From the IMG/VR virus record IMGVR_UViG_2671180846_000014: a stretch of DNA of 9,424 nucleotides; one strand, 5' to 3'. The notes below the pieces were generated by a model. The model was not told where the DNA came from. It searched no databases and saw only the letters and a list, made by a program, of their open reading frames with translations. Below, in pieces: positions 248 through 8,661 of the stretch. Position numbers and translations under genes: made by a program. Source of the DNA: a virus. Taxonomy: Duplodnaviria > Heunggongvirae > Uroviricota > Caudoviricetes. The first letter of the stretch is position 1; the number at the start of each line of letters is the position of its first letter.

Positions 248-324
248 TGCTTTTCGGNNNNNNNNNNNNNNNNNNNNNNNNNNNNNNNNNNNNNNNNNNN
301 NNNNNNNGAAGTAATACCCGCACG

Positions 325-2991: not shown

Positions 2992-3681
2992 TTACCCGTT
3001 ATCTCCTGTCGTTATTTTCTGTATGACATCACGATGCTTATTAATTTCCCGCAGCGCGGCGCATAAGCGCTCCCACTTCTGAACCTGACCTTTTGCCCGG
3101 CGCAGCTCGCGGTTAGCCACATGCAGCGATGGTAAAATCAGACCATCCGGATGCTTTCTGATGAACGACGACTGTGACTGCACTGTGACCGCCACACTTT
3201 CAGTTTTAATTTCTTCCTGTGTTTCCGCTTCCCGGACTGGTAACGCAACACCTGCCGGCTGAGGAAAGGCTTTACCATCGGTTTCCGTTACCGATGCAGC
3301 TTTCGGCTCTGCCGGTAAATTATCGCCCGGTATGCAGTAACGATATTGACCGTCCTGATTTACGCGAATCAGACGACCTTTGCTGACAGCCATCGCCAGT
3401 GATGAATTCGCCCGGCGGGAGGTAATCCCGAACATTAACGCCAGTTCGTCAGCCGACTGAGGACCATGCTGTTCAATCGCGTTAATCAGCATCTCTGCAG
3501 TGGTTTTTGGGGCCGCTTCAGTTGCCTCACTCGTCAGCCACCACATCGACCCCTTGTTATCAGCTTCGCCACGACGCTTCAGCTTCCAGAGTTCGGTAAC
3601 AGCATCGTCACGGCTGATTTCAAGACGGGCTGCAATCTCGTGCGACGAGGCTTTTTTCAGTGCTTTCAGTGCGTCAAAAAC
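2992..3681 (-). CDS. hypothetical protein (229 aa) with two winged-helix-like segments; possibly DUF1627-like
   Basis: Track ORF 2992..3756 trimmed to the ATG at 3679-3681 ([11 protein letters not shown]...), which has GGAGG 8 nt upstream; the longer form would overlap the P-like gene. Two HTH-like stretches ([26 protein letters not shown] and [29 protein letters not shown]). Confidence 0.65.
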
Positions 3682-3724: not shown

Positions 3725-4285
3725 TCAGACAAAACCGGCCGCCTTCCGGCGCTCATATTCCTGTTTCAGCAATTCAATTGGCGTTGGCCCTGGCGGGCGT
3801 TTGGGTGCTGCCAGTTGTCGCCGGACTGGCGGAACACTGAGGCCATTACCAACATGCTTTGCCCATTTCGTCAGCTGCCTTTCCACAAGCCGTTTTAACT
3901 CCCCTTCGGTCATCTGGCGCTCAATCCCCTTTGAACGCATCTCGAGGCAAATGTGGTACAGCACCGGCTGTGGCCACGGGTATTTATCACTCCCGTCGTA
4001 CCGCCAGGATTCATTCCTCCAGCGACGGTATTCCTCCATCACGGCATCCACCGTCAGGCCAAATGGATTTGCCCCGCTCTCCGAAATCAACGCCACAAAC
4101 TCAGCCAGATCCGGAGGCCACGTTTCACCCGCCCGGCAGCGGTCCATGCACCGACGGCAGATCTGCCGGATTTGCTGTTCAGTCATCGCGCCAATCTGAG
4201 CAATCCAGAGTTTCGACGGCGCAGCCCCGTTCTTCTGAGTCCAGCGGTTCGAATACACCTCCCCCATAAGCTCCCACAGCTTCCA
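3725..4285 (-). CDS. phage replication protein P-like (helicase loader); 5' end in or next to masked run
   Basis: C-terminal two-thirds aligns by eye with lambda P ([11 protein letters not shown]...[16 protein letters not shown]...[16 protein letters not shown]... versus lambda ENGITTMEQVN...FLPSPGQFVAWCREE...YPWKSNAHYWLVTNLY). Stop TGA at 3725-3727. True start is either the ATG at 4265-4267 (GGAG 4 nt upstream) or inside the N run 4286-4335; the track's 4381 start is a TTG. Confidence 0.65.
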
Positions 4286-5081
4286 NNNNNNNNNNNNNNN
4301 NNNNNNNNNNNNNNNNNNNNNNNNNNNNNNNNNNNGTGAAAACCTTCCCCTCCGCCATCCAGTAATCCCGGAATGCGGCAAGCTCAGCAGGTGTAAACTC
4401 AGGCTCAGGCAGAGCCATACCCCACACTGCTGCCCGCTGTCGAAAATCCGGCGACGGTTGCCAGACTCCAGTCATCGGAAATTTCCCGATCGGTTCGCTC
4501 AGGCCGTCCAGGTATTCAGGTTCGGCTGTCTGCAACGACGCGTCATTCAACTCACCGGTCGTAGCACTCTCGCGCATGCGCGCGTTATGTGTGGGGTTTA
4601 ATTCTTTATCTGTATCTGTATCTGTCGTGATTTGTCGTGACATATGCGTGACGCGTCGTGACTCATCGTGACAATCAGTGTTCTGCTTCCGCAGTCTTTC
4701 CCGCTCCCGCTGCGCTCTCTTGCGCTCTGCCGGGGATTTTGCGGTTTGCGAAACATTACCGTTATCCTCCTTCATCACCTGGCGTTTTTCCCATCCGGAA
4801 ATAAGATCACCATCCAGAACTCGCCCCTGCATTGCATGCAAAATTGAATCAATCACGTCTTCCGTCACATCAAGCGCACTTGCTAAATCTTCCGTCGTGA
4901 CATCAATGTGACCACGTAGTGACACGCCGTGACATGTCGTGACATTTCGTGACGCACTCACCAGAAGGTGGATATACACCGCCATCACTGTTGCGATTGG
5001 CTGTCCTGAGACCCTGGCAATGGTTCGCCATTTGGGATCATTTGGCATGTCATGCCACAATCTGAGCCAGGCATTAGCCAT
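4286..5081 (-). CDS. replication initiator candidate (O-like by position and embedded iterons); 3' end hidden by masked run
   Basis: ATG at 5079-5081 (MANAWLRLWHDMPNDPKWRTIA...) with GAGGTGA upstream; the track's extra MS comes from a GTG. Frame is open to the N run. Immediately precedes the P-like gene. Contains two phased GTGAC repeat arrays. Family (DUF1376/YdaU-like?) is not certain from memory. Confidence 0.55.
4607..4672. repeat. iteron-like array 1: (TATCTG)x3 followed by five CGTGA(C) repeats at 10-11 bp phasing
   Basis: CGTGA starts at 4626, 4636, 4647, 4657, 4667; TATCTG at 4607, 4613, 4619. Lies in frame inside the O-like CDS (encodes ...RRVTHMSRQITTDTDTD...). Confidence 0.6.
4896..4953. 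repeat. iteron-like array 2: six GTGAC repeats at 10-11 bp phasing
   Basis: GTGAC starts at 4897, 4908, 4919, 4929, 4939, 4949, same orientation as array 1. One inverted GTCAC at 4864-4868. Inside the O-like CDS N-terminal region. Confidence 0.6.
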
Positions 5082-5149
5082 ACTCACCTCATCTGATACC
5101 GAACTTTACCCTCGAACATCCGGAATAAATCCGGCATGAATATTGTTGG

Positions 5150-5575
5150 TCAATGCACGACAACAGCATTACCAGGCTGACCACCACTGTTAGTCAGGGT
5201 GCCCCAGGCGATCGCCGCTGCGACAAAATCATCCACATCTTTCACCAGCCGATCCCTCCGTTCGACGATCTCACGGTAATATTCAGAGCTGTGACTGCGC
5301 ATACGGGCCACCAGCAGAGGCGGCATTGCCTTTTCGATCGCCGGTAACAGAGCCTGAATTTTTTCAACAGCATCAGGGGTGTCTTTATCCAGCCAACGGA
5401 AAATTTTCTGGGTATTACGAGCCAGGGCTTCCGGATGGCTGTCGTCGTACAGTTCCGGGAACGTCATCCCCAGCTCGAAATAAGTCCGGGCTATTTCAGC
5501 TGCAGGAACTTTCTCACCGTCCGGATAGGCCCAGGCATTGATCGCCATGCGGATGTGCTCATGTTTGATTTTCAT
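5150..5575 (-). CDS. YdaT-like protein at the CII position (141 aa)
   Basis: ATG at 5573-5575 overlaps the Cro-like stop (ATGA); TGA at 5150-5152. N-terminus MKIKHEHI... resembles the YdaT family from memory. Sits between the cro-like and replication genes. Confidence 0.6.
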   Translation of the reverse strand: MKIKHEHIRMAINAWAYPDGEKVPAAEIARTYFELGMTFPELYDDSHPEALARNTQKIFRWLDKDTPDAVEKIQALLPAIEKAMPPLLVARMRSHSSEYYREIVERRDRLVKDVDDFVAAAIAWGTLTNSGGQPGNAVVVH

Positions 5576-5799
5576 GAATCCCCCTTTCCTTCGCCCTGAG
5601 TGGTATCCTTCTTTTTGTAAAGTTCTGGGTTCAAAGATAATTTCCCCTTGGAGTATGCAGCAGCTTCCGCAGCCCTCCCCTTCGGAACTATTTCACCAGG
5701 ACGCTTACGCCACATGTAAATAGCTTCGCGGGTTATCCCATAAAAATCGGCAACCCTCTGAACAGAACCAAAAAACTGGACAAGTTCATCAACTCGCAT
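5572..5799 (-). CDS. dicC: Cro/DicC-like small HTH repressor (75 aa)
   Basis: ATG at 5797-5799 with GGAGG 6 nt upstream. Divergent from the CI-like gene. Motif VQFFGSVQRVADFYGITREAIYMWRK...VPKGRA resembles DicC/Cro-family proteins recalled from E. coli Qin prophage. Confidence 0.8.
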   Translation of the reverse strand: MRVDELVQFFGSVQRVADFYGITREAIYMWRKRPGEIVPKGRAAEAAAYSKGKLSLNPELYKKKDTTQGEGKGDS

Positions 5800-5893
5800 T
5801 TTACCTCCTAAATCTAAGTATTTTTAGATTACAAGATAATTTTTTTTAGGTCAATGCAATCTAAAATAATTTATATTCAATTTGCAGGAGAAA
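5800..5893. promoter_or_regulatory. divergent promoter/operator region (PR/PRM-like) with two operator-like palindromes
   Basis: AATCTA-N8-TAGATT at 5811-5830 and AATCTA-N8-TATATT at 5858-5877. TATATT (5872-5877) is a plausible -10 for the repressor gene. For the cro side, TTGACC (complement of 5849-5854) is a possible -35, though the matching -10 is weak. AT-rich. Confidence 0.55.
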
Positions 5894-6541
5894 ATGATGG
5901 AAAGCCTTGGCATCAGGCTTAAGAGACTTAGAAAAGATAAGGGGCTGACCCAAGTAGAACTGGGTAAGCTTTCAGGCGTGACTGGGGTTACTATAGGGTA
6001 CTGGGAGAAAGATCTAAACGAACCAGGTAGCAAAGCTCTAAGTAAGTTAGCCCAGGCATTAGGAACTACTGAGTCCTATCTCCTATATGGAGTATCGTCT
6101 CCTGAATTATCTTTTGTACAAAGTACCTCAGGCACCAAGATCCCCTACCTTTCGTGGGGTGAGGCGATTTCTTTCCTAATCTTAAAAGGAGAGAAAACAA
6201 TGGGAAATGTCGATAGGATCACCACATTCTTTGATGTCGAGGAAGGTGATTTTGCCGTTTCAATGCCTGATGACACAATGCATAACCCATCAGGATCACC
6301 GAGTATCCCAGTTGGTGCTACTGTGATCCTAAGGCCAGGAGAAAGTTATAAAAATGGCAGCATCGTCGCTGTAATAGTTCCGGATCCGCTTAAAAATGAA
6401 CCATCTATGACTATAAAGAAATTAGTTATTGATGGGAAGCTTGTGTATTTAAGCCCTCTCAATCCACGCTATCAGTCATCCTTACTTACACCAGAGTGTA
6501 AAATTGTTGCCGTAGCAAAAGGTGTACAGTTCAACTTATAA
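5894..6541 (+). CDS. CI-like prophage repressor: XRE-type HTH plus LexA/S24 peptidase domain (215 aa)
   Basis: ATG at 5894 with AGGAG 5 nt upstream (the track start at 5882 is a TTG). N-terminal HTH LTQVELGKLSGVTGVTIGYWEK. C-terminus strongly resembles lambda CI (TIKKLVIDGKLVYLSPLNPRY versus lambda [21 protein letters not shown]), with a candidate Ser (AVSMPDD) / Lys (IKKL) dyad. Confidence 0.9.
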   Translation: MMESLGIRLKRLRKDKGLTQVELGKLSGVTGVTIGYWEKDLNEPGSKALSKLAQALGTTESYLLYGVSSPELSFVQSTSGTKIPYLSWGEAISFLILKGEKTMGNVDRITTFFDVEEGDFAVSMPDDTMHNPSGSPSIPVGATVILRPGESYKNGSIVAVIVPDPLKNEPSMTIKKLVIDGKLVYLSPLNPRYQSSLLTPECKIVAVAKGVQFNL

Positions 6542-7140: not shown

Positions 7141-7340
7141 GGGTTATTCCTTCCCCCATTGAGGACACCGGGTTGTCAGGTTGACCATACGCTTAAGTGA
7201 CAACCCCGCTGCAACNNNNNNNNNNNNNNNNNNNNNNNNNNNNNNNNNNNNNNNNNNNNNNNNNNGGGTTATTCCTTCCCCAGTTGAGGACACCGGGTTG
7301 TCAGGTTGACCATACGCTTAAGTGACACCCCCGCTACAAC
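7141..7340 (+). repeat. two near-identical 75-bp copies (7141-7215 and 7266-7340) separated by a masked 50-nt run; each holds a 9-bp-stem hairpin
   Basis: GGGTTATTCCTTCCCCCATTGAGGACACCGGGTTGTCAGGTTGACCATACGCTTAAGTGACAACCCCGCTGCAAC versus the second copy with 4 substitutions. Internal inverted repeat GGGTTGTCA...TGACAACCC. Confidence 0.7.
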
Positions 7341-7356
7341 GCCCTCTGTTATCAAT

Positions 7357-7415
7357 ATTCTGGTGACATTTGGCGGTATCAGTTTTACTCCGTGACTGCT
7401 CTGCCGCCCTTTTTT
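7357..7415 (+). ncRNA. dicF: DicF small RNA homolog (ftsZ-targeting prophage sRNA) with its intrinsic terminator
   Basis: ATTCTGGTGACATTTGGCGGTATCAGTTTTACTCCGTGACTGCTCTGCCGCCCTTTTTT matches my recollection of E. coli DicF with 2 differences in the 5' part. Ends in a GC stem (GGCGG...CCGCC) plus T6. Lies upstream of the dicB-like gene as in the Qin dicB operon. Confidence 0.7.
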
Positions 7416-8092: not shown

Positions 8093-8142
8093 NNNNNNNN
8101 NNNNNNNNNNNNNNNNNNNNNNNNNNNNNNNNNNNNNNNNNN

Positions 8143-8498: not shown

Positions 8499-8661
8499 CC
8501 CGCCAGCCATATTAACGCCATACCAACGGATTAAAAATGCCAGCAATGGCAGGGATTCGTTCACCCTGAAATCTGTAATNNNNNNNNNNNNNNNNNNNNN
8601 NNNNNNNNNNNNNNNNNNNNNNNNNNNNNGCATCACAAAATTCATTGTTGAGGACGCGATA

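Follow-up and report, generated by a model that had tools for sequence, protein, structure and literature searches.

An initiator-like gene in a lambdoid prophage of Escherichia coli carries two arrays of short direct repeats, spaced at about one helical turn, within its coding sequence. The arrays are a signal at the level of the DNA, neither a product of chance nor a repeat of the protein. The best explanation for them is a two-part iteron origin of replication situated inside the gene of a predicted winged-helix initiator, accompanied by an unwinding tract next to it, and acting with a lambda-P-like helicase loader; judged on comparison of sequences, this reading is probable, at roughly four in five. 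A preliminary description of the same DNA had suggested a candidate phage origin made of phased initiator-binding repeats within the initiator gene, and the suggestion gains support from the layout of the elements, from the concerted change of the repeat core and from constraint on synonymous positions. Within the candidate origin, array 2 and the A/T-rich tract beside it are the likely core, and array 1 together with a single inverted satellite site may form a conserved auxiliary part.

Locus and gene order

The window, i.e. the whole stretch of 9,424 nucleotides analysed here, has an E. coli lambdoid prophage as its source. Positions 4337-5150 are 100% identical to many E. coli chromosomes, e.g. 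that of the O26:H11 strain 11368, and related DNA is present in 802 of 5426 complete E. coli genomes, including prophages of EHEC O26 and O157. Megablast against phages returned a sole match (113 nt, 80%, Aeromonas phage pAEv1818), and relatives of the initiator-like gene were reached by tblastn rather than by this search. A LexA-family cI-like repressor gene lies on the plus strand (5882-6541). The P22-Cro-like gene (5572-5799), the YdaT-like gene in the cII position (5150-5575), the initiator-like gene with both arrays (4179-5081) and the lambda-P-like helicase-loader gene (3725-4186) share the minus strand, and a DUF1627 gene is listed after the last of these in the gene order of the window. 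The initiator-like gene thereby occupies the O position of a lambdoid early operon, beside a P-like gene that overlaps its end by 8 nt. The assignment of the loader gene comes from Pfam (Phage_lambda_P, 2.5e-16) and PHROG ('P-like helicase loader', 2.6e-53), and the gene is annotated as 'replication protein P' in NC_013361.

The initiator-like gene has 100% DNA identity to NC_013361, where its product is annotated as 'DnaT-like ssDNA-binding domain-containing protein', and in the identical E. coli O26:H11 locus (L001) this product is 345 aa long. The window contains six runs of exactly 50 N. One of these, at 4286-4335 in the 3' half of the initiator-like gene, stands for 185 nt in L001 and is clear of both arrays. 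The prophage may be defective, and the candidate origin may no longer fire.

The initiator protein

The only Pfam match for the whole protein is DnaT (PF17948, 1.5e-08), and a Pfam scan of the N-domain returned nothing even at E <= 10. The protein is also assigned to the PHROG family phrog_1408, 'replication initiation protein' (7.9e-118), and weak PHROG matches over aa 2-170 are to 'DnaD-like helicase loader' (4.4e-08) and 'replisome organizer' (6.1e-05). Many homologues are named 'phage replisome organizer' by NCBI. Full-length equivalence to DnaT was rejected on a score of 93 bits against the NCBIfam equivalog cut-off of 201, with residues 192-269 alone matching.

An AlphaFold model built from 31 sequences reaches medium quality overall (mean pLDDT 68) and values above 90 in the blocks aa 11-40 and 61-90. 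Predicted helices at 3-11, 16-25, 29-45, 63-70 and 74-84 are followed by a hairpin at 85-94, and together these would make up a winged-helix domain. Beyond this domain the model places a basic helix at 117-134 and a disordered stretch at 143-184. The protein is predicted to have three parts, namely a winged-helix domain at the N-terminus, a linker that is basic and disordered, and a DnaT-like C-domain. The fold of the N-domain model appears to be DnaD-NTD-like, all E-values of the Foldseek search being above 0.1. In the model the codons of array 1 fall on the end of helix 29-45 and on a low-confidence, length-variable loop at 46-62, and array 2 with the A/T-rich tract encodes aa 137-160 of the predicted disordered linker. 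By the model, the arrays occupy the structurally least constrained codons, those of a loop and a disordered linker.

Anatomy of the two arrays

Array 1 (4896-4953, minus strand) consists of six head-to-tail GTCAC(G) units and encodes aa 43-62 (SASRNVTTCHGVSLRGHIDVTT). Its GTCAC cores, read on the coding strand, lie at 4953-4949, 4943-4939, 4933-4929, 4923-4919, 4912-4908 and 4901-4897 with spacings of 10, 10, 10, 11 and 11 bp; in gene coordinates they start at nt 129, 139, 149, 159, 170 and 181 (span nt 129-186). Array 2 (4626-4672, minus strand) has four GTCACG units and one degenerate ATCACG unit and encodes aa 137-152 (CHDESRRVTHMSRQIT). The coding-strand cores are found at 4672-4668, 4662-4658, 4652-4648 and 4641-4637, and the degenerate ATCAC at 4631-4627, spaced by 10, 10, 11 and 10 bp; the corresponding gene coordinates are nt 410, 420, 430, 441 and 451 (span nt 410-456). 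The gap between the arrays is 227-229 bp, about 21.7 turns, which is not clearly integral. The five and six repeats of the preliminary description, in one orientation and 10-11 bp apart, were all recovered at their positions. The wording of the repeat unit needed mending: with the gene on the minus strand, the GTGAC recorded there becomes (T)GTCACG on the coding strand. The same description regarded two separate arrays as atypical, which is correct in relation to lambda and incorrect within the initiator family, where two arrays are the rule.

Chance does not account for the repeats. GTGAC occurs 29 times in the window against 13.5 expected, a count matched by none of 200 shuffles, and CGTGAC 11 times against 3.06 expected, with 8 of the 11 inside the two arrays. 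The longest chain of a 5-mer at 9-12 bp spacing has six members, compared with at most three in 500 dinucleotide shuffles, and Tandem Repeats Finder assigns a period of 10 to both arrays.

Constraint on the DNA

The GTCAC core is read in codon phases 0, 1 and 2 and so yields VT, CH and SR peptides; the earlier statement that the repeats lie in frame is inapt, as the unit occupies all three phases. When synonymous codons were shuffled with protein and codon usage kept, 3.5 +/- 1.6 GTCAC were obtained versus the 10 observed, a number reached in 0 of 5000 shuffles. The same procedure applied to relatives with their own motifs had a similar outcome in five of the six tested; the relative P0090 fails (360/5000). 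The two VT dipeptides of the array-1 loop are written as GTCACG in 24/24 and 23/24 GTCACG-class relatives, respectively. A protein-level repeat is ruled out by the 10-11 nt period, by the use of three codon phases and by synonymous shuffles that fall short of the observed counts. Synonymous positions in homologues, which the preliminary description had named as a check, are constrained, as judged from codon shuffles and VT codons and from the tract codons and inverted-site Val codon described below.

These results bear directly on the idea that the repeats have no function as DNA, being either tandem DNA prone to slippage that a loop and a linker can accommodate or a side effect of a peptide motif that recurs. 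The number of units does differ among close alleles, and the encoded segments are predicted to be unstructured, as such an idea would have it. Against it stand a period that is not a multiple of three, with all three codon phases in use, the strong constraint on synonymous sites, and the retention of position and two-array layout from Gamma- to Alphaproteobacteria with the motif replaced in both arrays together. We regard it as very improbable.

Family survey and concerted change of the core

Protein searches gave 1657 and 3297 clusters at E <= 1e-5. Phage members include those of Escherichia (Tritos, Evi), Pseudomonas (D3-like phi1), Aeromonas and Ralstonia. The survey sample comprised 71 genomic loci taken from Gamma-, Beta- and Alphaproteobacteria and from some metagenome-assembled genomes, plus phage and metagenome loci. 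A chain was defined as an identical 5-mer recurring at 9-12 bp spacing, or at 20-22 bp where one unit is skipped. By this rule 60 loci contain chains of the same 5-mer twice, starting at gene nt ~112-160 and ~330-480, the surveyed sequences being related by descent, so that counts of loci are not counts of independent events. A stricter two-cluster test was positive for 53/67 genes versus 0/66 upstream and 0/67 downstream control segments. About 12 of 72 relatives have no clear arrays by the exact-5-mer detector.

The core differs by lineage, with GTCACG, GTGACG, GCAACG, GTAACG and CGAACG/AACGC represented, and within each gene both arrays share one core. Such joint change is expected if one lineage-specific protein reads both arrays; it goes along with the lineage of the N-domain and lends indirect support to binding by the cognate initiator. 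The N-domain alone accompanies the arrays throughout; the C-domains and the adjoining helicase or loader genes vary, the latter being lambda-P-like in E. coli, annotated 'replicative helicase' in Aeromonas and annotated dnaB in Ralstonia. The number of units also varies, with 6 + 5 (array 1 + array 2) in the window, 6 + 7 in locus L080, 6 + 9 in L079 (E. coli GCA_000350765.1) and 4 + 5 in Shigella and in phage Tritos. Insertions and deletions in the protein match blocks of units, e.g. 7 aa, or 21 nt, corresponding to two units.

The A/T- and purine-rich tract

Array 2 is immediately followed by an A/T- and purine-rich tract (4597-4625, minus strand), on the coding strand (GATACA)3 GATAAAGAATTAAA, which is a candidate DNA unwinding element. 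The tract is the least stable 30-mer within the initiator-like gene by nearest-neighbour energy. It is short (~30 bp) and moderately unstable, ranking ~160th of the 9395 30-mers in the window, and intergenic regions are less stable. In relatives the corresponding tract is (GATAAA)n, (GATACA)n or (GAGAAG)n. Counted over 40 bp from the end of array 2, A+T is higher than in the locus in 60/60 relatives (mean 0.68 vs 0.44), and the enrichment holds even for hosts with 30-38% A+T. It is likewise visible in codon choice: in the tract, 77% of D/K/E/T codons have A or T as their last base, versus 46% elsewhere in the same genes, and at the most GC-rich locus the counts are 8/8 versus 20/74. The (TATCTG)3 repeat at 4607-4624 in the preliminary description is present as recorded there. 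It is not a separate oddity and instead belongs to this family-wide A/T- and purine-rich element.

Inverted core, conserved junction and palindrome

A single inverted core (coding-strand GTGAC, 4864-4868, minus strand) lies between the arrays, 33 nt after the last unit of array 1, where it is encoded in the codons for D-V-T (aa 71-73). The finding that the repeats of the arrays all have one orientation holds, and this extra site is added to the picture. The offset is 33 nt in 19 of 20 GTCACG-class relatives, and the Val codon of the site is GTG in all 20, compared with 33% of their other Val codons. In two GTAACG-class loci the same Val is encoded by GTT, giving GTTAC, the inverse of their own core. 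On this pattern the inverted core looks like a further DNA-level site. The class-specific VT residues here lie just before the predicted recognition helix, and a role for them at the protein level is also possible.

Downstream of array 2 there is a conserved junction (4564-4601, minus strand; coding strand TTAAACCCCACACATAACGCGCGCATGCGCGAGAGTGC, peptide LNPTHNARMRES), which marks the boundary between the variable module of N-domain plus iterons and the shared DnaT-like C-terminal module. The DNA motif of the junction is common to L001, L002, L003, L008, L079, L080 and L083. Its LNPTHN peptide (TTAAACCCCACACATAAC..., downstream of the A/T-rich tract) is invariant in the protein alignment, including in initiators with other (DUF1376) N-domains. 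L083, which is of the other-N-domain type, has different repeats ahead of the same tract, namely GTTCAAAC twice and once inverted. With the LNPTHN junction kept and the N-domain and repeats of L083 both different, the N-domain and the iterons behave as one exchangeable specificity module. The shared part to which this module appears to be joined consists of the A/T-rich tract, the DnaT-like domain and the P-like module. Inspection of the junction by eye brought up no convincing DnaA box or IHF site.

The junction contains the 12-bp palindrome CGCGCATGCGCG (4571-4582), which the preliminary description had counted as part of the origin. The palindrome exists at that position, and its role in an origin is not upheld. 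Perfect 12-bp palindromes number 3 in the window vs ~2.2 expected, this one follows from A-R-M-R codons, and perfect versions are confined to L001 and L008, that of L008 having another form; in L079, L080, L002, L003 and L083 it is imperfect or absent. It was dropped as a functional part on the grounds of its chance-level count and its lack of conservation past the closest relatives.

Proposed mechanism and alternatives

In the origin reading, rightward early transcription would yield the initiator, and monomers of its N-domain would bind head to tail at one-turn intervals in both arrays. Oligomerisation of the bound protein, possibly bridging the ~229-bp gap, would then stress the DNA and open the (GATACA/GATAAA)n tract. 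The DnaT-like C-domain could engage the opened DNA, the lambda-P-like loader or both, and the loader would deliver host DnaB.

The most serious alternative concerns the extent of the origin. Array 2 and the A/T-rich tract alone could be the origin, with array 1 and its inverted satellite site serving as a regulatory element, either as an autoregulatory or handcuffing site that titrates initiator to limit firing or as a roadblock that makes transcription or translation of the initiator gene dependent on initiator occupancy. The A/T-rich tract adjoins array 2 only, and array 1 alone has an inverted site of its own at a fixed 33-nt offset. Protein bound to array 1, which is close to the start of the coding sequence, could also block its own expression. 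The two iterons of lambda closest to the A/T-rich region are enough for unwinding and for in-vitro replication (PMC7466680). This division of labour is a possible one, which we hold to be somewhat unlikely: array 1 is conserved as well as array 2 and in the same orientation, and in Stx phages weakly bound distal extra iterons are needed for replication (PMC7466680), so that distal sites can belong to the origin proper. The repeats could also be bound by another phage protein (e.g. Cro-like or YdaT-like) or by a host protein and function in regulation, partition or packaging, given that partition sites and operators have short phased repeats as well. Such a role is improbable. Loci with the arrays differ in their neighbouring genes and all have the N-domain, and a YdaT-like gene is not annotated in the examined stretches of Ralstonia Firinga and phage Tritos. 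A conserved host factor is disfavoured by a core motif that differs by lineage, and the arrays are always in the initiator gene beside an A/T-rich tract, the classic arrangement of an origin (PMC7466680; PMC6316719).

A more far-reaching version of the two-part origin may be offered as a speculation that we consider rather doubtful. Here the origin would be self-referential: array 1 would lie in the codons for a loop of the very winged-helix domain that reads it, the Val codon of the class-specific D-V-T would double as the inverted site, and the arrays would be bridged across a fixed ~229 bp. Were this so, the specificity of the origin could not be switched without rewriting part of the initiator as well. 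The bridged arrays would then constitute a built-in loop or handcuff that activates unwinding of the A/T-rich tract and limits re-initiation, or that ties firing to the transcription and translation of the initiator gene. The motif classes, of which there are at least five in nature, would amount to a readable recognition code for the initiator family.

Implications

Members of the initiator family are very common. Pfam has no family for the N-domain, and a literature search, in which older subscription literature was thinly covered, found neither an account of an origin for the initiator family nor experiments on binding or replication for any of its members. DnaT, YdaT, repeats and origins are unmentioned in a paper on the replication region of Stx phages (PMC8044961). 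The comparative pattern described here provides a testable origin map of two arrays, one inverted site and an A/T-rich tract, and the motif classes offer a natural specificity series for recognition of iterons by winged-helix domains. It may also serve as a simple sequence signature by which origins could be annotated in thousands of prophages. The gene is a clean case of overlapping protein-coding and DNA-site constraint, which bears on recoding and on dN/dS analyses. For lambdoid prophages of pathogenic E. coli, the candidate origin is relevant to replication, and hence to induction and toxin-gene dosage.

Comparison with known systems

Origins embedded in initiator genes are textbook knowledge for lambda and SPP1, and the iterons of lambda are ~19 bp long with internal dyad symmetry. 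The four iterons of lambda form a single contiguous block at the middle of gene O, Stx phages have six, and iteron number varies among these relatives, adding or removing O residues (PMC7466680). As in lambda, the candidate origin is located within the initiator gene, where the codons specify a flexible part of the protein, and direct repeats, here the putative binding sites of the initiator, are followed in the coding direction by an A/T-rich tract (PMC7466680). A P-type helicase loader is likewise next downstream, the place in a cI/cro-type early operon is the same, and the number of units varies between relatives here too, as in lambda and Stx O genes. The likeness to lambda ori in gene O drawn in the preliminary description therefore stands as an analogy of layout. 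It does not extend to the initiator, a lambda O homologue being ruled out by the lack of a Phage_rep_O match in Pfam for the whole protein and for the N-domain; only the downstream gene is lambda-like, resembling P. Unlike lambda, there are two arrays ~229 bp apart, the units are short (10-11 bp) and head to tail, one array lies in codons of the DNA-binding domain, and the C-domain of the initiator is DnaT-like.

In SPP1, oriL lies in gene 38, with direct repeats and an A/T-rich unwinding element in the gene of the origin-binding protein; this protein, G38P, has a separate helicase loader and a DnaB-type helicase as its partners, and a second site, oriR, is ~13 kb from oriL (PMC6316719). The candidate origin is like oriL in combining repeats and an A/T-rich tract within the gene of its own initiator. 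The SPP1 protein is annotated as DnaD-like, and the fold predicted for the N-domain here may be DnaD-NTD-like. Homology to G38P was rejected at an hhalign probability of 0.3%, with no detectable sequence relationship. In SPP1 gene 38 the repeats are gathered in a single mid-gene region, and the second array here is ~230 bp away in the same gene, in contrast to oriR at ~13 kb. One-turn units, two arrays ~229 bp apart and an array in the codons of the DNA-binding domain set the candidate origin apart from lambda and SPP1 alike.

RepA_N-type initiators of Gram-positive plasmids (e.g. RepA of pSK41) belong to plasmids, not phages, and have no sequence-family match to the initiator described here. 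To our knowledge, they have no second array inside the codons of the DNA-binding domain. Two separated clusters of the same short repeat, recognised by one initiator and with an A/T-rich segment near, are known from ori/crr of the satellite phage P4 and from SaPI origins. The clusters of P4 are kilobases apart and its initiator is a primase-helicase, and those of the SaPIs flank an A/T-rich region in non-coding DNA. Unlike array 1, neither the P4 nor the SaPI clusters are known to be embedded in the reading frame of a DNA-binding domain.

Possible exchange of the N-domain and iterons

The junction between the two domains of the initiator (LNPTHNAR.RES; window 4564-4601) and the adjoining AT tract, an A/T- and purine-rich stretch directly after array 2 (window 4597-4625), also occur in initiators that carry a different N-domain, of the DUF1376 type. 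One of these (L083, 1541-1680) has repeats of its own, GTTCAAAC, in two direct copies and one inverted copy, and they precede the same AT tract. A shared junction and AT tract, together with the separate repeats of this one initiator, suggest that the N-domain and its iterons form a swappable module.

Within the phage collection the sole DNA-level match (megablast) is to Aeromonas phage pAEv1818, 113 nt at 80% identity (window 4813-4925), covering a portion of array 1 and adjacent downstream codons of the N-domain.

Variation of the arrays among relatives

Array 1 (window 4896-4953) has a particular arrangement in several of the motif classes, which group relatives by iteron core: a unit is joined to an inverted copy of itself, giving the 10-bp palindromes GTCACGTGAC, GTGACGTCAC, GCAACGTTGC and GTAACGTTAC, which sit in the codons following an invariant R-G. 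Loci with such an array 1 are L004, L006, L012, L024, L026, L028, L063, L065, L069, L072, L074, L077 and L078; the fused palindrome is absent from the window's own array 1. An inverted copy of the core also lies 33 nt past array 1 (window 4864-4868, gene nt 214-218), where it is made by a Val codon. Every one of the 20 GTCACG-class relatives has GTG here, and two GTAACG-class loci have GTT, which matches the inverse of their own core.

Array 2 (window 4626-4672) varies in copy number. Five units are present in the window, and two close E. coli alleles of the initiator gene, L079 (1501-2553) and L080 (1501-2577), have nine and seven perfect (T)GTCACG units respectively; their linker is longer as a result, by a multiple of the unit length. 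No clear arrays were found by the exact-5-mer detector, a search for phased chains, in about a dozen relatives (L003, L034, L045, L050-L052, L054, L062, L064, L071, L073 and L076). Units in L003 are visibly mixed (GTAACG, GTGACG and GAAACG), so in some of these relatives the arrays are probably degenerate rather than absent.

Elsewhere in the window, two more GTGAC copies lie 11 bp apart within the DUF1627 gene (3174-3189) and three further, unphased copies lie at 7322-7396. Both sets are probably due to chance, since shuffled sequences often yield 2-unit chains (436 of 500).

Initiator length and the immunity region

Six runs of exactly 50 N interrupt the window (258-307, 764-813, 4286-4335, 7216-7265, 8093-8142 and 8580-8629). 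The run at 4286-4335 is within the initiator gene, at a place where the E. coli O26 locus, identical in other respects, has 185 nt. Being 135 nt shorter, the run keeps the frame, and the initiator ORF therefore measures 302 aa in the window versus 345 in the O26 locus.

At the position of lambda cII is a gene for a YdaT-family protein (window 5150-5575), adjoined by a P22-Cro-like gene (5572-5799). Nearby in the identical O26 locus (L001) are dicB and hokD (L001 626-781 and 7623-7811). The prophage thus resembles Rac/Qin-type immunity regions.
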